Positions 4,233 to 20,960 of a stretch of 23,915 nucleotides of DNA are shown here, piece after piece (the first letter of the stretch is position 1; the number at the start of each line of letters is the position of its first letter). Where the stretch lies: IMG/VR virus record IMGVR_UViG_2554235190_000005, positions 1 through 23,915 of that record; one strand, written 5' to 3'. Both the position numbers and the translations under genes were made by a program. The stretch comes from a virus (Duplodnaviria; Heunggongvirae; Uroviricota; Caudoviricetes). The notes under the pieces were generated by a model. It was not told the DNA's origin and did no database searches. It was given only the letters and a program-made list of their open reading frames with translations.

Positions 4233-5086
4233 GCACCATCCTGAAATGGGCGGGAAATAAAACCGCCATTATGCCAGAACTGAAAAAATACCTTCCTGCT
4301 GGCCCGCGACTGGTTGAACCTTTCGCGGGTTCCTGTGCTGTGATGATGGAAACGGATTATCCCAGCTATCTGGTTGCGGATATTAATCCTGATTTAATCA
4401 ACCTCTATAAAAAGGTTGCCGCTGATTGTGAATCGTTTATATCTCGCGCCAGAGTTTTATTTGAGATCGCAAACAGGGAGGTGGCTTATTACAACATAAG
4501 GCAGGAGTTTAACTGCTCAACTGAAATTACTGATTTCATGAAAGCGGTATATTTCCTGTATCTTAATCGTCACGGTTACCGTGGTTTATGTCGCTATAAC
4601 AAGAGCGGGCATTTCAACATCCCCTACGGTAATTATAAAAATCCGTATTTCCCTGAAAAAGAACTTCGCACATTTGCAGAAAAAGCCCAGCGAGCAACGT
4701 TTATCTGCGCCAGCTTTGATGAAACGCTGGCGATGTTGAAGGCGGGAGATGTGGTGTATTGCGATCCGCCGTATGACGGTACGTTTTCCGGCTATCACAC
4801 TGATGGTTTCACTGAAGATGACCAGTATCACCTGGCATCCGTTCTTGAACATCGGTCATCAGAAGGACATCCAGTCATTGTTTCTAACAGTGACACATCC
4901 CTGATCCGTTCGCTGTATCGCAATTTTACTCACCACTATATCAAGGTAAAACGCAGCATCGGTGTGGCAGCTGGCGAGGGTAAATCAGCAACAGAAATCA
5001 TTGCTGTTTCCGGGCCGCGCTGCTGGATGGGATTTGATTATTCGCGTGGCGTGGATAGTTCTGCCGTGTACGGAGTACGTGCATGA
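4229..5086 (+). CDS. DNA adenine methyltransferase, Dam/D12 class (N6-adenine MTase)
   Basis: N-terminus [23 protein letters not shown]...[10 protein letters not shown] and a DPPY catalytic motif (..[10 protein letters not shown]..); ATG 4229 overlaps the upstream stop, GGAGGTG RBS. Confidence 0.85.
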
Positions 5087-7497
5087 GTCATGCCGATATG
5101 AACAACTGCTGCGGCTTTAACGAGGCTGCCGCAGCATTCTCATGGAACAGCCCGAAAAAGGCCATTAACCCTTATCTGGACCCGGCGGAAGTTGCGCCGG
5201 TTTCTACGCTTTCAAACCTGATCACTCTGTACGCTGCCGATAACGAGCAGGAACAGTTGCGCCGCGAGGCACTGAGTGATCAGGTCTGGGAGCGTTATTT
5301 CTTTAATGAATCACGTGATCCTGTCCAGCGCGAAATGGAGCAGGATAAGCTCATTAGCCGGGCAAAGCTGGCGCATGAGCAGCAGCGTTTTAATTCAGAC
5401 ATGGTCATTCTGGCGGACGTCAACGCCCAGCCTTCCCATATCAGCAAGCCGCTGATGCAACGTATTGAATACTTCAGCAGCCTGGGCAGGCCAAAGGCTT
5501 ATTCCCGCTATTTACGTGAGACGATTAAGCCATGTCTGGAACGACTGGAGCATGTACGCGACAGTCAGCTATCTGCATCTTTTCGCTTTATGGCAAGCCA
5601 TGAAGGGCTGGACGGCCTGCTGATCCTGCCTGAAATGAGTCAGGATCAGGTGAAACGCCTGTCCACCCTGGTAGCTGCGCATATGAGTATGTGCCTTGAT
5701 GCAGCTTGTGGTGATTTGTATGCCACCGATGACGTTAAGCCAGAAGAAATCCGCAAGACATGGGAAAAGGTGGCAGCGGAAACCCTGCGTCTGGATGTCA
5801 TCCCACCTGCGTTTGAGCAACTCCGTCGGAAAAGAAACCGCCGTAAACCCGTGCCCTATGAACTCATTCCGGGTTCGCTGGCGCGTATGTTGTGCGCCGA
5901 CTGGTGGTACCGGAAATTATGGAAGATGCGTTGCGAATGGCGGGAAGAGCAGTTGCGCGCTGTTTGCCTGGTCAGCAAAAAAGCATCTCCTTATGTCAGC
6001 TATGAAGCCGTGATGCATAAACGTGAGCAGCGCCGTAAGTCGCTGGAGTTTTTCCGTTCTCATGAACTGGTGAACGAAGACGGCGACACGCTGGACATGG
6101 AGGATGTGGTAAACGCCAGCAGCAGCAACCCTGCGCATCGCCGCAATGAGATGATGGCCTGTGTTAAAGGTCTGGAGCTTATCGCGGAAATGCGCGGTGA
6201 CTGCGCCGTTTTCTACACTATCACCTGTCCGTCGCGTTTCCATTCCACGCTAAATAACGGCAGACCAAACCCGACCTGGACAAACGCGACGGTAAGACAA
6301 AGCAGCGATTATCTGGTCGGCATGTTTGCTGCATTTCGTAAGGCGATGCACAAAGCCGGGTTGCGCTGGTATGGCGTGCGGGTGGCTGAGCCGCATCATG
6401 ATGGCACAGTTCACTGGCACCTGTTGTGTTTCATGCGCAAAAAAGACCGCCGTGCCATCACTGCATTACTGCGTAAGTTTGCCATCCGTGAAGACCGCGA
6501 GGAGCTGGGCAATAACACTGGGCCGCGCTTTAAGTCTGAGTTGATTAACCCGCGCAAAGGAACGCCGACAAGCTACATCGCGAAATATATCAGTAAGAAC
6601 ATTGACGGTCGTGGTCTGGCTGGCGAGATCAGCAAGGAAACGGGTAAATCTCTGCGTGATAACGCTGAATACGTGAATGCCTGGGCGTCTCTGCATCGTG
6701 TTCAGCAATTCCGCTTCTTTGGTATTCCGGGGCGTCAGGCTTACCGTGAACTTCGCTTGCTGGCTGGTCAGGCGGCAAGGCAACAGGGTGACAAAAAAGC
6801 AGGTGCGCCGGTACTGGATAACCCGCGTCTTGATGCCATTCTGGCTGCTGCTGATGCTGGTTGTTTTGCCACCTACATCATGAAGCAGGGCGGCGTACTG
6901 GTTCCCCGTAAATATCACCTCATCAGAACCGCTTATGAAATCAACGAAGAGCCGACCGCCTATGGCGATCACGGCATTCGTATTTATGGCATCTGGTCAC
7001 CCATTGCAGAGGGCAAGATCTGCACTCATGCAGTGAAGTGGAAAATGGTTCGTAAAGCCGTTGACGTTCAGGAGGCGGCAGCCGACCAGGGCGCTTGCGC
7101 CCCTTGGACTCGTGGCAATAACTGTCCCCTTGCTGAAAATTTGTACCAACAAGGGAAAGACAAATCAACTGATGGAGATACCAGAACGGATATCACCCGC
7201 ATGGATGACAAGGAGTTGCACGATTACCTGCACAGTATGAGCAAAAAAGAGCGCCGGGAACTGGCAGCAAGGTTACGCCTGGTGAAACCGAAACGGCGTA
7301 AAGACTACAAACAGCGAATTACAGACCATCAGCGACTGCAGCTCGTGTATGAACTGAAGTCCAGGGGATTTGATGGCAGCGAGAAAGAGGTCGATTTACT
7401 GCTTCGCGGCGGCAGTATTCCGTCAGGAGCAGGGCTACGTATCTTCTATCGGAACCAGCGTTTGCAGGAAGATGATAAGTGGCGGAACCTGTATTAA
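5083..7497 (+). CDS. A: Replication initiation protein (P2 gpA-like rolling-circle endonuclease)
   Basis: 804-aa ORF at the end of the early operon; size and position match P2/186 gene A. Start overlaps the dam stop; the true start could be a downstream Met. Confidence 0.8.
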
Positions 7498-7650: not shown

Positions 7651-7839
7651 ATGCAGGACTATTTTTTGGAGTCTTTGAAGCTCCAGCGCATTGATTTTTT
7701 TCTTAAGCTTGTAGCGGCTAGTGAGTGTAGTGATGAAGAGAAGGGGCTGGCCCTGCAGTGGGTTTCTGAATTGACTGATGAACTCATGGCAAAAATCAGA
7801 AGCCACGAATACAACCGCTCAATGGATGTCATCAGCTGA
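7651..7839 (+). CDS. SOS-regulated small protein (62 aa), possible Tum-like antirepressor N-terminal module
   Basis: ATG 7651 with AGGAGGA RBS; first gene downstream of the LexA box; followed 10 nt later by a DinI-like gene. Confidence 0.5.
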   Translation: MQDYFLESLKLQRIDFFLKLVAASECSDEEKGLALQWVSELTDELMAKIRSHEYNRSMDVIS

Positions 7840-7849
7840 GGTGACTTTT

Positions 7850-8083
7850 ATGCGCATTGAAATAATGATCGATAAAGAGCAGAAGATTAGCCAGTCTACC
7901 CTGGACGCTCTGGAGTCCGAGCTTTACCGCAACCTGCAACCCATCTATCCCAAGACCGCTATCCGCATCCGTAAAGGGTCGGCAAACGGCGTTGAGCTGA
8001 GTGGCTTAAAGCTTGATGAAGACAAAAAGCGGGTGATGGAAATTATGCAACAGGTTTGGGAAGACGACAGCTGGCTGCACTAA
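7850..8083 (+). CDS. DinI-family protein (Tum C-terminal-like)
   Basis: MRIEIMIDKEQK...LDALESEL...VWEDDSWL resembles E. coli DinI (MRIEVTIAK...ETWESADDWF) in length and motifs; RBS GAGG upstream of ATG 7850. Confidence 0.7.
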   Translation: MRIEIMIDKEQKISQSTLDALESELYRNLQPIYPKTAIRIRKGSANGVELSGLKLDEDKKRVMEIMQQVWEDDSWLH

Positions 8084-11014: not shown

Positions 11015-12046
11015 CTAATTCAATGAATAATCTTTGAAGGCTATTATTTTTTTCTTTAGCCAAATATTAACTTCTACAAGTCTTTTTTGTAAAGGAATTA
11101 ACTCATTTCGCACAAAAACGCAACTGGCTTTCTCCACATCCCCAAACCCACCGACATTATTAGGCATAATCCCCATCATTTGCGGCGGCACACGATGCGC
11201 CGCCATCATGTCATCCCGGCTCACGTTCTTGATATTCAAAAACTCATCCTTCGCAGCGACCTCTGACAACGGGATAATCTGAAGCCCGTCCTTTTTGCCG
11301 TTAGGCGAGTACATAAACAGGTTGCGGAAGTTGCCCGGACCTTTGGCGCTTTTCATCGCATTACGGAGGTTGTTTACATCCTCCTGGTTCTGCGCGGCAT
11401 CGGTCATGTACATGATGAAGCCTGCATGGCTGCCGTTGATGTAATACTTACGGCGGAACAGCGTGGCGGACTCGTTGAGCAGGGCTGACGGAATGGCAGA
11501 AAGATAGCCGGGCAGGCCGTAGATCTCCTGGTTGATGTCCGGTTCCATCAGATGAAAAATGCTGCCTTTCGTGAACTGATACGGCTGAGTTGTCATACCG
11601 TATTGCACAAACCAGTAGGTATCTAGGTCTAACCCGCGTCGGGTGTATTTTGCCAGCGCAGGCTCAAGGGCGATAACTTCACCGAATCGGTTCGTGCGTT
11701 TCTCCAGGTAGGCGTTACCAAATACCAGATAGTCCTGCACAAAACGCGAAAAAGCCTGCTGGCTGAGCAGCGGATGAGGGATATAGGTACTGGTCAGAAT
11801 GTTGCACTTTACTGCAATCGGGGAACTGTGATGCACGGCAGCGCGGAAGGTGCGCGCCAGTCCGTCAAAGCTGACGGGCGGCTCATACCAACGATCTGTC
11901 TGTACGCATTCCACATAGTCCAGCAGTTCTCGGCGGTCCAGAACAGGAACGGGATCGCCGAAGCTGAATGCTTCGGCTGTAGTCTGGCTTTTAAGCTGGA
12001 TCTGTTTCGTCGCCGCAGCGCGGTTCTTCTTACTCTTTCCCATCAA
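11015..12046 (-). CDS. Q: Portal protein (P2 gpQ-like)
   Basis: 343 aa, leftward, translationally coupled to the upstream terminase gene; size and position match P2 Q. Confidence 0.9.
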   Translation of the reverse strand: MMGKSKKNRAAATKQIQLKSQTTAEAFSFGDPVPVLDRRELLDYVECVQTDRWYEPPVSFDGLARTFRAAVHHSSPIAVKCNILTSTYIPHPLLSQQAFSRFVQDYLVFGNAYLEKRTNRFGEVIALEPALAKYTRRGLDLDTYWFVQYGMTTQPYQFTKGSIFHLMEPDINQEIYGLPGYLSAIPSALLNESATLFRRKYYINGSHAGFIMYMTDAAQNQEDVNNLRNAMKSAKGPGNFRNLFMYSPNGKKDGLQIIPLSEVAAKDEFLNIKNVSRDDMMAAHRVPPQMMGIMPNNVGGFGDVEKASCVFVRNELIPLQKRLVEVNIWLKKKIIAFKDYSLN

Positions 12047-13809
12047 AAAATCTCCACAATATTGCTGGTATTGGCGGATTCGCCCTGCAGCGGTTCGTTA
12101 AACAGTGCGTGCATTGTTGCCCAGGCCAGATCGGCGTGGCTGGCTTCTTCGCTGCGGCTGGCTTCATAGGTCGGGCGGTTGCCACTGGCGGTGGTGGCGC
12201 GACGGATTGCCATAAATGACTGCGCTATGTCGGTGTGTCCGGCGTCAAACTCCAGACGGCGGTGGCTGATAATGTCGTAGGCCTTGAGTACCAGGGCGTT
12301 TTTAACATTGGGGTTGTAGACAAACTCCCGGACGGCAGGAAAGAACGCTTTCACGTTCTCATAAACCCCGTGACCAACGCCGGTTGAGTCGATACCGATA
12401 TAGGTCACGTTGTACTGTTCGGTCAGTTTTTTGATGGCGTCAGCCTGGGCGCGGAAGTCCATCCCGCGCCACTGGTGACGCTCAAGAATGCGGAACTTAC
12501 CGCCCGGCACGGCTGGCGGTGCCACCACCACGCATCCGGCGCTGTCGCCGTTCTGCGTACCTTTTGCCGGGTCATAACCGATCCACACTTCGCGCCAGCC
12601 AAACGGGCGAAGGGCCAGTGCATGGAAGTCGGTCCAGACTTCCCAGCTGTCCACCATGCACGCCTGCAGCTCGCTGAGCGGAAACACGGACGCGAGATCG
12701 TCCACGAACTCGCACATCAGCAGGTTCAGGTATTCATCCGGGCTGTACTCCATGCGCAACTGGTCAAGGTCGAACAGGTTACAGCCGCCGCGCACTGCAT
12801 CTTCCACGGTGACTATCTGGCGGTATTGCCCGTCTGCGCACAGCAGGCCGGGGGCCAGATTGCTGTGGGACAGGTCGATGTCCACCTTGTCGGCTTTGTT
12901 GCGTCCACGGTTGAACAGCGCACCGGACCAGAACGGATAAGCACTGTGGGTCAGGCTGGATGGCGTGGAAAAATAGGTTTGTCGCCATTTCTTGTGAATA
13001 GCCATACCGGAAGCCACTTTGCGCAGCTCCTGGAATTTCGGTATCCAGAAATATTCATCCAGATACAGGTTGCCGTGGTAACTCTGCGCCGTGCGGGCAT
13101 TGGTGCCGAGGAAGTAAAGCGTGGCCCCGTTAGGAAGCACCATCGGATCGCCTTTCAACTCCACCTCCACTTCTTTGGCGAAGTCGATGATGTACTGTTT
13201 AAAGACGTGGGCCTGTGCCTTACTGGCGGAAAGGAAAATCTGGTTACGTCCGGTAAGCAGGGCGTCAATCAGGGCTTCACGGGCAAAGTAAAAGGTCGCG
13301 CCGATCTGGCGTGACTTCAGCAGGTTGCGGATGCGGTTGGTTTTTCCGGCTTCCCACCAGTGGCGCTGGTAGTTGAACATGGAGGAATGGAAAATTTCTT
13401 CCAGCTTCTCAATCTGTTCATCGGTGAAAACGTTCTTTTCCGGCTGACGGCGTGGGCCTTTGTTGCGGTTGGCGACGTTAGGGTTTAAGTCGGCTTCGTT
13501 GCCGCCATTGTTAAACTTGCCGATCCGCGCGTGGCGTTCCGACTGGCGCGCCAGCAGGTCAATCTCTTTGAAATCTTTCCCTTCTTTGTGCTCCTTCATA
13601 ATGAGCTGGCAGTAGCGTGCGGCGGTGGTGAGCTGCATCTGATCCAGCGGCCCATAGTCACCCCACTTGTCGCGTTTTTTCCAGCTGTGAACGGTTGCAA
13701 CTTTCTCGCCCAGCATTTCAGCAATGCGGGCTACGCGGTATCCCTGAAAGTACAGCAGCATGGCCTGCCGACGGGGATCGAGATCTGCGGGTGTCAGTGT
13801 GGTGTTCAT
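12043..13809 (-). CDS. P: Terminase large (ATPase) subunit (P2 gpP-like)
   Basis: 588 aa, divergent from the O-N-M-L operon as in P2; size matches gpP. Confidence 0.9.
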   Translation of the reverse strand: MNTTLTPADLDPRRQAMLLYFQGYRVARIAEMLGEKVATVHSWKKRDKWGDYGPLDQMQLTTAARYCQLIMKEHKEGKDFKEIDLLARQSERHARIGKFNNGGNEADLNPNVANRNKGPRRQPEKNVFTDEQIEKLEEIFHSSMFNYQRHWWEAGKTNRIRNLLKSRQIGATFYFAREALIDALLTGRNQIFLSASKAQAHVFKQYIIDFAKEVEVELKGDPMVLPNGATLYFLGTNARTAQSYHGNLYLDEYFWIPKFQELRKVASGMAIHKKWRQTYFSTPSSLTHSAYPFWSGALFNRGRNKADKVDIDLSHSNLAPGLLCADGQYRQIVTVEDAVRGGCNLFDLDQLRMEYSPDEYLNLLMCEFVDDLASVFPLSELQACMVDSWEVWTDFHALALRPFGWREVWIGYDPAKGTQNGDSAGCVVVAPPAVPGGKFRILERHQWRGMDFRAQADAIKKLTEQYNVTYIGIDSTGVGHGVYENVKAFFPAVREFVYNPNVKNALVLKAYDIISHRRLEFDAGHTDIAQSFMAIRRATTASGNRPTYEASRSEEASHADLAWATMHALFNEPLQGESANTSNIVEIF

Positions 13810-18549: not shown

Positions 18550-18943
18550 AGCGGTGCCTTATGTCCGCAATAACCCGGACAAACTGCATCTGTTTGTGGA
18601 TAACGGTTCGCTGGTTGCCACGGGGGCCAGCTCCATGTCGTGGGAGTACCGTTACACCCTGAACGCGGTGATTGAGGATTTCAGCGGCGACCAGAATCTG
18701 CTGATGGCCCCGGTTTTGCTGTGGCTGCGTGATAACCAGCCCGATGCCATCAATAACCCGGCGTTACGGGAAAAACTATTCACCTTTGAGGTGGATATTT
18801 TGCGCAACGATGTCTGTGATATCAGCCTTAACCTGCAACTGACGGAGCGTGTGCTGGTCAGTACTGACGGCAGTGTGTCGAGTGTTGAAGCGGTGCCGGA
18901 GCCGGACGAACCCGAGGAAATGTGGACGGTGAAGCGTGGATAA
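18512..18943 (+). CDS. R: Tail completion protein (P2 gpR-like)
   Basis: From the GTG at 18512 the translation (M)NKPQSLRHAL...LHLFVDNGSL...RYTLNAVIEDFSGD...LLWLRDNQPD matches P2 gpR as I recall it; GGAG RBS. Confidence 0.8.
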   Translation: MNKPQSLRHALNKAVPYVRNNPDKLHLFVDNGSLVATGASSMSWEYRYTLNAVIEDFSGDQNLLMAPVLLWLRDNQPDAINNPALREKLFTFEVDILRNDVCDISLNLQLTERVLVSTDGSVSSVEAVPEPDEPEEMWTVKRG

Positions 18944-19388
18944 TCTGCATAAGGTCGATGAGTGGCTGGCGGCACTGCTGGCGAATCTGGAGCCTGCCGC
19001 ACGCAACCGTATGATGCGGCAACTGGCGCAACAGGTGCGCCGGACGCAGCAGCAGAATATCAGGCTACAGCGCAATCCTGATGGCAGTGGATACGAGCCG
19101 CGCCGGGTAACTGCCCGAACAAAGAAGGGCCGTATTAAGCGACAAATGTTCACCAAACTCCGCACAACAAAATACCTTAAAACCGCTGCTAGCGCCGACT
19201 CTGCCAGCGTACAGTTTGAAGGTAAGGTGCAGCGCATTGCCCGCGTCCATCATTACGGGTTGCGTGATCGTGTCAGCCGTAAAGGCCCGGAGGTTCGTTA
19301 TACCAAACGTAACCTTCTCGGATTCAATTCTGTATCCGAGAGGTTAGTTAAAGACATAATAATAGATTGGATTCGTAGATTGTTATAA
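18936..19388 (+). CDS. S: Tail completion protein (P2 gpS-like)
   Basis: 150 aa; ..WLAALLANLEPAARNRMMRQLAQQVRRTQQQNIRLQRNPDGS.. resembles P2 gpS. The last ~20 codons are AT-rich and overlap the 3' end of the antisense cargo gene. Confidence 0.8.
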   Translation: MDNLHKVDEWLAALLANLEPAARNRMMRQLAQQVRRTQQQNIRLQRNPDGSGYEPRRVTARTKKGRIKRQMFTKLRTTKYLKTAASADSASVQFEGKVQRIARVHHYGLRDRVSRKGPEVRYTKRNLLGFNSVSERLVKDIIIDWIRRLL

Positions 19389-20288
19389 CCGCCATTTTGT
19401 TGTTTTGCTCATTGGATGTTTTTCTATCATATATCTTGCTATTTCCCCTAGGGCGGTTTTATCTTCGACGAAAATCTCAGCTGTGCGTGGTGAAATAATA
19501 GGGGGTGTGTTTTTTATAGGCTCATTGAATTTTATTGGTTCGTAGCGGAACTCATACTTCCAATTTGCTAGTGCAGCTAGGCTCAAAGCAACATGAGTAT
19601 CCTTGAGGCGATGGTAAATCTTCCGAGCAGATTCTAGAGAGCATCGCTCACCAAGGGTAACTGCTTTGATAGCATCTAGTGGAATATCGTTTGTATAAAT
19701 ATCAAATTGCTTAGCCTTGGCTTTATTTTTTTTACAATCCCTTAATGATCTGATTAAGCGATATTCTTTTTCATAGTTCCAGATGTCAGATTTTATACAT
19801 AAATTTGAAATGGGTATGGTTTCATTTTTTAAAAAGTAATCCATATGGATAATCGGCCGATCTTTCTCGTATCTAACTTCCGTCAGGCCAGAAAAATACT
19901 CATGACTTTCATCGAACTCTATGACTGCACCACTATATTCATCAGCGTAGTGTGCCCACATTAAATGTGAGTCTGCATTTTTTGAAAGGCATAGTATTCC
20001 TATTTCATTATTTAGATTGCTTATAAGTTCACGGGAAAAAATATCGTTGCAGTTTTCGTGTTGAAAATTCGACTCAAGGCGATAACTATCAATTAAAGGC
20101 TCTTGTGACAGAACATCAAATCGTAGTTGTACCCGATCACCTTCATTGTAGTTTGGATTGAAAACCTCTAAAGCTAGTTCAAACGGGTCATTAAATCCTC
20201 CCGGTTGAGTGAATCGTATTGAACCATTGAGAATGTAATCAAGTGTTGTAGCTGTAACGTATTTATATAGTGACATTTTATAACTCAT
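19383..20288 (-). CDS. DUF2971-like hypothetical protein (about 300 aa), AT-rich cargo inserted antisense between S and V
   Basis: Track ORF 19383..20393 (-); probable start at the ATG at 20288 or 20276 (MSYKMSLYKYV...). N-terminal motif LYKY...L.YILNGSIRF..P..FNDPFE matches the DUF2971 signature as I remember it. Strongly AT-rich; sole minus-strand gene inside the late operon. Confidence 0.7.
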   Translation of the reverse strand: MSYKMSLYKYVTATTLDYILNGSIRFTQPGGFNDPFELALEVFNPNYNEGDRVQLRFDVLSQEPLIDSYRLESNFQHENCNDIFSRELISNLNNEIGILCLSKNADSHLMWAHYADEYSGAVIEFDESHEYFSGLTEVRYEKDRPIIHMDYFLKNETIPISNLCIKSDIWNYEKEYRLIRSLRDCKKNKAKAKQFDIYTNDIPLDAIKAVTLGERCSLESARKIYHRLKDTHVALSLAALANWKYEFRYEPIKFNEPIKNTPPIISPRTAEIFVEDKTALGEIARYMIEKHPMSKTTKWRL

Positions 20289-20317
20289 GCTGTTTTGTTC
20301 GAATTGTTTGTGATTAT

Positions 20318-20335
20318 TGTTTGGAATTCCATACA
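20318..20335. promoter_or_regulatory. Candidate late-promoter activator site (TGT-N12-ACA) upstream of V
   Basis: TGT(20318-20320)-N12-ACA(20333-20335) in the gap between the cargo gene and V; spacing to the V ATG (20382) is tight, so the assignment is tentative. Confidence 0.3.
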
Positions 20336-20381
20336 AAAGCAATCGAATGCTGATAGCAAACCATTTCTGCATTGTATTGGC

Positions 20382-20960
20382 ATGAACGCACAACTAACCG
20401 AAATCATGCGCCTTATCACCAACCTGATCCGCACCGGCACCGTGACCGAAGTGGACCGGGAGAACTGGCTTTGCCGAGTGAAAACAGGCGACCTTGAAAC
20501 AAACTGGATTAACTGGCTGACATTCCGGGCTGGCAAATCGCGCACCTGGTGGTGTCCGTCACCAGGGGAGCAGGTGGTGCTGTTCAGCCTGGGGGGCAAT
20601 CTGGAAACCGCCTTTGCGCTGCCTGCCATCTACTCCAATCAGTTTGCGCCGCCGTCGGATTCCGTGGACGGCTGCGTGACGGAGTACCCGGACGGGGGCT
20701 GGTTTGAGTATGAACCCGCCACCGGGCGGTGGCATGTCCGGGGTATCAAATCCATGGTGATCGAGGCGGCGGACAGTATCACCCTCAAAACCGGTGAGTT
20801 TGTGGTAGAGGCTGACACCACGCGCATTAACAGCGAGGTGGTGATCAATGGCAGCGTCACCCAGGGCGGCGGCGCGATGAGTTCCAACGGGATCGTAGTG
20901 GATAAACACGGTCACACCGGCGTTAAGTCCGGCGGCGATACGTCAGGAGGCCCGGTATGA
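20382..20960 (+). CDS. V: Baseplate spike / assembly protein (P2 gpV-like)
   Basis: From ATG 20382: MNAQLTEIMRLITNLIRTGTVTEVD..., parallel to P2 gpV's N-terminus as I recall it. Confidence 0.85.
   Translation: MNAQLTEIMRLITNLIRTGTVTEVDRENWLCRVKTGDLETNWINWLTFRAGKSRTWWCPSPGEQVVLFSLGGNLETAFALPAIYSNQFAPPSDSVDGCVTEYPDGGWFEYEPATGRWHVRGIKSMVIEAADSITLKTGEFVVEADTTRINSEVVINGSVTQGGGAMSSNGIVVDKHGHTGVKSGGDTSGGPV

Follow-up and report, generated by a model that had tools for sequence, protein, structure and literature searches.

A P2-like (Peduoviridae) prophage carries, between its tail genes S and V, an AT-rich antisense DUF2971 gene whose most likely role is to shield the host cell from other phages. 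The sequence analyzed here, referred to as the window, is a stretch of 23,915 nucleotides that represents this prophage. The complete explanation that we favor, to which we assign a probability of roughly 0.6, is that the gene is an exchanged cargo of the S-V slot and that it encodes a DUF2971/PDC-S31 protein resembling an ADP-ribosyltransferase (ART), which would be expressed in the lysogen and would use NAD+ to abort infection by other phages. The evidence comes from the layout of the S-V junction, the family and predicted fold of the protein, a survey of the slot, and the distribution of the relatives of the gene.

Results

The S-V junction contains a single, AT-rich, minus-strand gene

Around the DUF2971 gene, the nucleotide identity between the window and Klebsiella phage 4LV2017 is about 87%, and the phages Fels-2 and SopEPhi, along with their relatives, are similarly close. 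The S protein is 77-83% identical to the S proteins of Fels-2-like and Elveevirus phages. The coordinates of the features described below are listed in Table 1.

Table 1. Features of the window that bear on the S-V junction.
Feature	Position	Strand or direction	Evidence or remarks
Replication gene A	5083-7497		
Portal gene Q and terminase gene P	11015-13809	minus	as in P2
Late genes	13952 onward	rightward	
Tail completion gene S, final gene of the O late operon	18936..19388	+	Pfam Phage_tail_S, 2.3e-39; phrog_26
Cassette-specific AT-rich 3' end of S, roughly its final 25-30 codons; left cassette border	19300..19388	+	GC drop, identity drop
Inverted repeat in the 3' end of S	19306..19348		forms a hairpin (about -18 kcal/mol); lies 35-77 nt past the stop codon of the DUF2971 gene
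DUF2971/PDC-S31 gene, 297 aa	19383..20276	minus	alternative start at 20288 gives 301 aa
Candidate leftward sigma-70 promoter, straddling the activator dyad	20313..20342	minus	-35 TTGCTT 20342-20337; 18-nt spacer; -10 AATAAT 20318-20313
Ogr-type late-activator dyad TTGT-N12-ACAA of the V-operon promoter, right cassette border	20317..20336	+	palindrome search, alignment
Baseplate spike gene V, opens the V late operon	20382..20960	+	Pfam Phage_base_V, 1.5e-17, and Apex, 8.4e-7

An initial annotation of this DNA had called a minus-strand open reading frame between S and V, and this gene is real. The end that it had been given at 20393 could not be retained; it is the TTG start of a mechanically defined reading frame, lies past the start codon of V, and differs from the start indicated by the homologues. 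We regard the ATG at 20276 as the conserved start, because more than 100 homologues are 297 residues long and because a stop codon directly follows the upstream ATG of the E. coli orthologue. A start at 20288 is possible in the window. The gene and S overlap by 6 nt (19383-19388), with the TAA stop codon of S at 19386-19388 and the minus-strand stop codon at 19383-19385, and the same 6-nt overlap is seen in the E. coli and Leclercia orthologues. When the cassette was scanned for further credible open reading frames, none was found besides the DUF2971 gene. The gene had also been described as the sole minus-strand gene inside the rightward late operon; in the late region from O to H, no other credible gene lies on the minus strand, whereas Q and P, outside that region, are also encoded there.

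The GC content of the gene is 36.8% (30.5% at third codon positions), as compared with 52% in S, 60% in V, 57% in W and 55% in R. Within S, most of the gene has a GC content of 57-68%, but this falls to 40% in codons 121-140 and to 21% in codons 141-151. Thus, the AT-richness relative to the neighboring genes, the overlap with S and the AT-rich end of S, all noted in the initial annotation, were upheld by measurement.

The protein belongs to DUF2971 and has a predicted ADP-ribosyltransferase fold

The assignment of the protein to DUF2971 proved correct. The Pfam model (PF11185) is matched over all of its 89 positions by residues 110-178, with a score of 26.3 bits (E 2e-5) that exceeds the gathering cut-off of 22, and precomputed matches to PF11185 are present in most homologues. 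Five models of the PADLOC class PDC-S31 also match; the best, PDLC04990 (6.3e-41), aligns residues 6-248 with positions 8-254 (247 positions) of a 259-position model. The class is defined by a single gene with no obligatory partner, which is the arrangement found here. When the PADLOC models were scanned with E values of up to 1, PDC-S31 was the only class returned, and no DarT model was among the matches. The protein further matches phrog_1762, a family of unknown function (5.5e-46), and no NCBIfam model matches it. A literature search on PDC-S31 yielded no paper that mentions the class, which is, to our knowledge, an unvalidated computational candidate. The description of the family as one of unknown function holds only in part: the family includes this PADLOC candidate class, has a predicted ART fold (PMC12522546) and contains one validated member, Aristaios (PMC11381338).

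Among 1.84 billion cluster representatives, a profile search identified 21,387 relatives with E values of 0.001 or less. Because just 15 or so of these cover all 298 profile positions, the final segment of about 50 residues is specific to the subfamily.

The AlphaFold2 model of the protein has a pLDDT of 92.4 and a pTM of 0.89, and its fold matches include the Rhs toxin TreX, scabin, PARP15, and pertussis-like and heat-labile toxins. A Foldseek search against the PDB gave nothing significant; the top match, with an E value of 0.15, was DarT, the single-stranded DNA thymidine ADP-ribosyltransferase of DarTG toxin-antitoxin systems. The alignments with DarT extend over 100-135 residues at 8-13% identity. 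No solved relative was found in a profile search of PDB sequences, where CarD appeared as a chance match (E 0.49). Two independent published predictions give DUF2971 an ART fold (PMC12522546; PMC11381338), and we consider such a fold no more than moderately supported for the window protein, as judged from the predicted structure.

Eleven residues are invariant in 36 relatives with identities down to 25%: D30 (in the motif FNDPFE), W107, Y110, G116, Y136, K162, W166, E169, E171, R173 and G209. Position 21 is almost always R or K in the same relatives. The catalytic motifs of the ART superfamily have H or R in motif I, Y or S-x-S in motif II, and E or ExE in motif III. Tyr and ExE motifs have been described for DUF2971 (PMC12522546), and the invariant Y110 and E169-x-E171 appear from the alignment to match that description. 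One could envision that the invariant residues line an NAD+ site.

One alternative is that the protein is not a DarT-like ART acting on bases or proteins but an RNA-directed enzyme of the Tpt1/KptA type, which uses NAD+ and acts on the terminal phosphate of RNA or DNA. It would then work on the ends of tRNA or mRNA, either in defense or in RNA repair. We think that this is unlikely. The catalytic residues of Tpt1 are Arg-His-Arg-Arg. The invariant ExE and Tyr suit the classical ART motifs better (PMC12522546). At the structural level, the DarT matches score nearly as well, and at the sequence level, neither Tpt1 nor DarT is matched.

The gene lies at the boundary of two late operons

In the P2 reference, the order of elements in the same interval is the O-operon terminator, which is rho-independent, then orf30, a non-essential gene on the minus strand, then the activator site of pV and finally the V-operon start. 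The activator dyad of the window precedes V in 8 of 8 aligned loci of the Fels-2/Elveevirus type, regardless of the cargo and with an empty allele among them; in the P2 row of this alignment, the TTGT half alone was aligned. The center of the dyad is 55.5 nt upstream of the V ATG, which equals the spacing annotated in P2 for the activator site and the start of pV. Based on the P2 layout and the conserved dyad, we conclude that the DUF2971 gene resides between two late operons and not within one. The earlier view of an insertion inside a late operon has, accordingly, been abandoned, as the slot is the boundary of the O operon and the V operon.

A relaxed search identified a candidate promoter for leftward transcription at a shared position in the window, in E. 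coli (locus L007) and in Leclercia (locus L008). It consists of a -35 element, TTGCTT or TTGATT, an 18-nt spacer that is the activator dyad itself, and a -10 element, AATAAT, which ends 31-36 nt before the ATG. The candidate scores below the threshold of the consensus promoter scan, which returned nothing in the gap at 20277-20381. Expression of the gene from the lysogen is plausible, although this candidate promoter is weak. One could further speculate that binding of the late activator would close the leftward promoter while opening pV.

A scan of 19000-20700 detected no intrinsic terminator, and an Rfam scan of 18800-20800 at E up to 1 detected no known RNA element in the junction. Because S overlaps the gene and no terminator lies between them, transcripts of the O operon may cross the gene in the antisense direction during lytic growth. 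The hairpin in the 3' end of S is possibly the terminator of the DUF2971 gene, although it is a weak candidate. RNAalifold gave no shared structure across four loci, which does not support a conserved terminator, and the hairpin has no T-run.

The S-V slot is exchangeable, and its left border is inside S

To define the slot, the S-V interval was measured in 63 loci, which came from phage records and from a sample of one genome for each bacterial species, in which loci encoding gpV were retrieved. The window and the other DUF2971 loci of the survey table were included for carrying the gene, with the exception of a Winslowiella locus (L037) that was found through gpV. The slot is empty in 18 of the 63 loci, with a spacer of 68-81 nt, and occupied in the remaining 45 by cargo of 570-3810 nt. 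Nearly all of the cargo is AT-rich, and the GC content of the spacer is mostly 0.32-0.39. These results support the claim that the gene is a variable accessory gene and not a tail component. Among the loci found through gpV, the Winslowiella locus is the only one with a DUF2971 gene, which is, therefore, one allele among many.

The cargo includes genes of recognizable defense type, namely PARIS AriA/AriB (AAA_21 with DUF4435), PtuA-like ATPases, EcoRII with a Dcm methylase, SIR2 and a KAP NTPase. Also present are HigB with an HTH protein, FRG/PDC-S15, DUF5677 and DUF6216. Because the slot also accepts an IS1 element, which is not of the defense kind, and many genes of unknown nature, the S-V location in itself only hints at a defense function. 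The chief open reading frame of the cargo is antisense in every occupied locus except three (L005, L039 and L043). This rule fits a constraint on expression, in that a constitutive rightward promoter in the slot would cause the lysogen to transcribe its tail genes.

The gene is not a one-off insertion but one allele of the long-known exchangeable orf30 slot of P2 (PMC3091744), a position that has been named among three regions of horizontally acquired genes in P2-like phages (PMC3091744; PMC6823313). Three other proteins, P2 Orf30, a 283-aa protein of RE2010 and a 176-aa protein of Cartapus, were considered as relatives of the window protein; none of them matches Pfam or PADLOC, and they were set aside as unrelated cargo.

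The comparison of occupied and empty loci also bears on the proposal that the insertion rebuilt the C-terminus of S. The mean GC content of the S tail is 0.42 in the 45 loci with cargo and 0.58 in the 18 empty loci, in agreement with that proposal. Between 19296 and 19340, the identity of the window to the empty allele, about 0.8 at first, drops to 0.4. The S residues past the LLG motif are variable in loci with cargo, whereas the empty loci keep an end of the form ...RDTLLRWLAG. The S tail of the window recurs in the E. coli locus L007, which has DUF2971 cargo (...NWLCRLL / ...DWIRRLL). An S C-terminus that accompanies the cargo is, then, a general property of the slot, and the differences between the S tails of occupied and empty loci indicate that the exchangeable unit has its left border within S, near 19300-19325. 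A search around the cassette for flanking direct repeats, as expected for transposition or site-specific insertion, returned short chance matches only, and homologous exchange in the conserved flanks, therefore, fits better than transposition.

Relatives of the gene are found inside and outside prophages, with a conserved protein length

The gpA-gpQ defense hotspot of E. coli P2-like prophages also lists DUF2971 genes (PMC9122126 supplement). The identical protein is encoded on at least 24 contigs, and the gene is at the S-V position in 24 of the 24 places that were read (3 shown and 21 listed as similar). Orthologues in the same slot and the same orientation are found in E. coli (81% identity), Leclercia (67%), Winslowiella (58%) and K. 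pneumoniae (56%). Relatives with about 50% identity in Stutzerimonas and Vreelandella are lone genes with a GC content of 39-40%, located next to integrase or IS elements, and homologues are also present in other environmental Gammaproteobacteria such as Shewanella, where the protein again has 297 residues. A conserved partner gene was sought across the prophage and island contexts, and none was found; the neighbors differ. A far more distant DUF2971 gene occupies the S-V slot of Pseudomonas phage BR319a (Citexvirus), on the sense strand.

Relatives with identities of 43-98% keep the length of 297 residues and have about 30 residues that are invariant. The dN/dS ratio relative to the E. coli orthologue is 0.06, at a dS of about 1.5, and dS is saturated in more distant pairs. 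When 5,426 complete E. coli genomes were searched by blastn, the cassette had no match.

Since the gene is phage-borne, it could be a helper of the phage itself, either a counter-defense factor or an enzyme for host takeover or superinfection exclusion like the phage ADP-ribosyltransferases Alt, ModA and ModB of T4. Phage enzymes of this sort do use the ART fold, and the BR319a gene, in its sense orientation among late genes, would agree with such a role. We nevertheless consider it decidedly improbable. The gene points away from both late operons in the window, as it does in the remaining enterobacterial DUF2971 loci, and the slot that it occupies is optional, being empty in 18 of the 63 loci. 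Close relatives, moreover, reside outside phages beside integrase or IS elements, and PADLOC flags the family as a defense candidate. A lysogenic-conversion or virulence factor, that is, an ART toxin sent into eukaryotic cells or rival bacteria, is very unlikely, as no secretion or delivery partner gene adjoins, the 297-aa protein also occurs in environmental Stutzerimonas, Vreelandella and Shewanella, and the other cargo of the slot comprises defense systems. Finally, a selfish or decaying passenger, useless to phage and host, would account for the foreign AT-rich composition, the absence from the 5,426 E. coli genomes at blastn sensitivity and the undefined promoter, but it is scarcely credible given the dN/dS of 0.06, the length and invariant residues kept down to 43% identity, and the identical protein on at least 24 contigs, in the S-V position wherever it was read.

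Discussion

We propose that the DUF2971 gene is a horizontally exchanged cargo of the S-V (P2 orf30) slot, which lies between the end of the O operon and the promoter of the V operon. The left end of the cassette would fall within the last 25-30 codons of S, at about 19300-19325, and its right end immediately before the dyad at 20317. With these two borders, the cassette supplies an S C-terminus of its own and does not disrupt the V promoter. Its product would be a stand-alone DUF2971/PDC-S31 protein with an ART-like fold, which the lysogen would make from the gene's own putative leftward promoter. The protein would remain idle until another phage infects. It may then use NAD+ to transfer ADP-ribose onto nucleic acid or onto a component of the gene-expression machinery, so that transcription of the phage would stop and the infection would be aborted, by analogy with its distant relative Aristaios. 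Because there is no antitoxin partner, control would have to be intrinsic, and the subfamily-specific C-terminal tail is a candidate for this role.

A more elaborate hypothesis joins several of these elements, and we offer it as a doubtful proposition when taken as a whole. The 297-aa enterobacterial subfamily might be an antitoxin-free, nucleic acid-directed NAD+ transferase akin to DarT and Tpt1, in which the C-terminal tail of about 50 residues serves as an off-switch until a phage cue is received. The leftward promoter might be arranged around the dyad, so that the Ogr-type activator shuts the defense as the tail genes start. The S-V slot itself might be an under-described defense hotspot whose cassettes are swapped by recombination in the 3' end of S.

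Much of this is already known, including the DUF2971/PDC-S31/Aristaios family, its predicted fold and the variability of the orf30 slot. The additions are modest and consist of this allele, the presence of recognizable defense systems in the S-V slot, the orientation rule and the border inside S. The DUF2971 gene appears to be a real but fairly ordinary accessory gene. Aristaios is the only DUF2971 member shown to stop phages; if active, the window protein would be the first tested Gram-negative, prophage-borne member of a very large family, for which about 21,000 cluster representatives were found. The S-V slot offers a small, well-delimited place in which to seek more defense genes, beside the two hotspots that have been mined. 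Current ideas are extended by these results, and none is changed.

Aristaios is a 316-aa, single-gene DUF2971 protein encoded on the Lactococcus plasmid pUCCL641_199, and it confers resistance of the abortive-infection type, with protection at low MOI and collapse of the culture at high MOI (PMC11381338). It works after DNA injection and blocks phage transcription and the production of structural proteins (PMC13064643; PMC12967558). The window protein resembles it in being a product of about 300 aa from a single, mobile-element-borne gene, in belonging to DUF2971 (PF11185) and in having a predicted ART fold. It differs in that Aristaios comes from a Gram-positive plasmid and is experimentally validated, whereas the window protein comes from an enterobacterial prophage and is a candidate. 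The Pfam family is the sole link that the two share, and the last 50 or so residues belong to the 297-aa subfamily of the window. As for PDC-S31, all five models match, and the window protein is likewise the product of a single gene. Unlike DarTG, the window gene has neither a DarG macrodomain partner nor any conserved neighbor, and the PADLOC comparison links it to no DarT.

With regard to its location, the S-V slot is similar to the gpA-gpQ (old/tin) and Z/fun hotspots, which are small exchangeable loci between conserved phage genes and hold diverse defense systems (PMC9122126; PMC9519451). The window has cargo in its gpA-gpQ hotspot as well. The S-V slot is, however, outside the hotspots mined in those two studies (PMC9122126; PMC9519451); the sites treated in the earlier hotspot papers are gpA-gpQ, Z/fun and tail-cI. 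A 2026 survey of P2 defense hotspots gives "within the tail genes" and, further, "downstream of GpL" as places of defense loci and leaves S-V unnamed (PMC13586616). The closest parallel in position is orf30 of P2. The 261-aa Orf30 protein is unrelated to the window protein and has no Pfam or PADLOC match, and a terminator parts S from orf30 in P2, whereas S and the DUF2971 gene overlap by 6 nt in the window. Nevertheless, orf30, the other S-V cargo and the DUF2971 gene are alike in their position between S and V, their antisense orientation, their low GC content and their optional presence.

DUF2971 genes at other S–V junctions and outside phages

The S–V slot between the tail genes S and V of P2-like phages also holds a distant relative of the DUF2971 protein in the phiCTX-like Pseudomonas phage vB_Pae_BR319a, with about 32% identity over 146 residues. 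Because this gene lies in the sense orientation, the same slot seems to have taken up a member of the family in an independent event in BR319a. In Winslowiella arboricola (L037), the slot is occupied by both the DUF2971 orthologue and a DUF5677 gene; the two could belong together as a pair, or the cargo could just be stacked. The GC content of the DUF2971 gene is also 39–40% in the relatives located outside phages in Stutzerimonas (L012 8001–8894) and Vreelandella (L014 8001–8894), the genomes of which are expected to be GC-rich. The family looks AT-rich in every setting where it was found.

Features at the S–V junctions and elsewhere in the window
Feature	Location	Strand	Setting	Match or note
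DUF2971 gene, 254 aa	L074 2294–3058	sense	S–V junction, phage vB_Pae_BR319a (NC_055793)	distant relative
DUF5677 gene, 348 aa	L037 2867–3913	−	S–V slot, upstream of DUF2971 orthologue	7.5e-32
ORF	1449–2105	−	window, AT-rich stretch	next to ORF at 1–1209
DinI-family gene	7778–8083	+	window, gpA–gpQ	3.8e-24
ORF, 203 aa	8466–9077	+	window, gpA–gpQ	~38% GC
KAP_NTPase/PDC-S49 gene, 560 aa	9294–10976	+	window, gpA–gpQ	~32% GC

The 3′ end of S and mobile cargo

A strong inverted repeat (19306–19348, about −18 kcal/mol) is positioned exactly at the GC drop of S in the window. The repeat is partly common to the window and the E. coli locus, and no conserved structure was detected there across four loci. 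In a Klebsiella MAG (L068), the S frame is interrupted by an in-frame stop right before the LLG motif near the C-terminus, and that prophage may therefore be decaying. One protein among the surveyed S–V cargo matched an IS1 transposase; its likeliest source is the Erwinia typographi locus (L039), where the spacer is the longest (3.8 kb) and contains an ORF of 491 aa on the sense strand.

Other AT-rich regions of the window

A further AT-rich stretch (1201–2100, 34–40% GC) surrounds the minus-strand ORF near the left end, and this region probably represents the prophage end with the immunity and integrase genes. The classical gpA–gpQ (old/tin) hotspot carries three of the tabulated genes. Searches of Pfam and PADLOC with the 203-aa ORF gave no match. 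The 560-aa protein matched Pfam KAP_NTPase (5e-9) and the PADLOC defence candidate PDC-S49 (1.5e-25), and its gene is, therefore, a second candidate defence gene in this prophage, residing in the old/tin hotspot.
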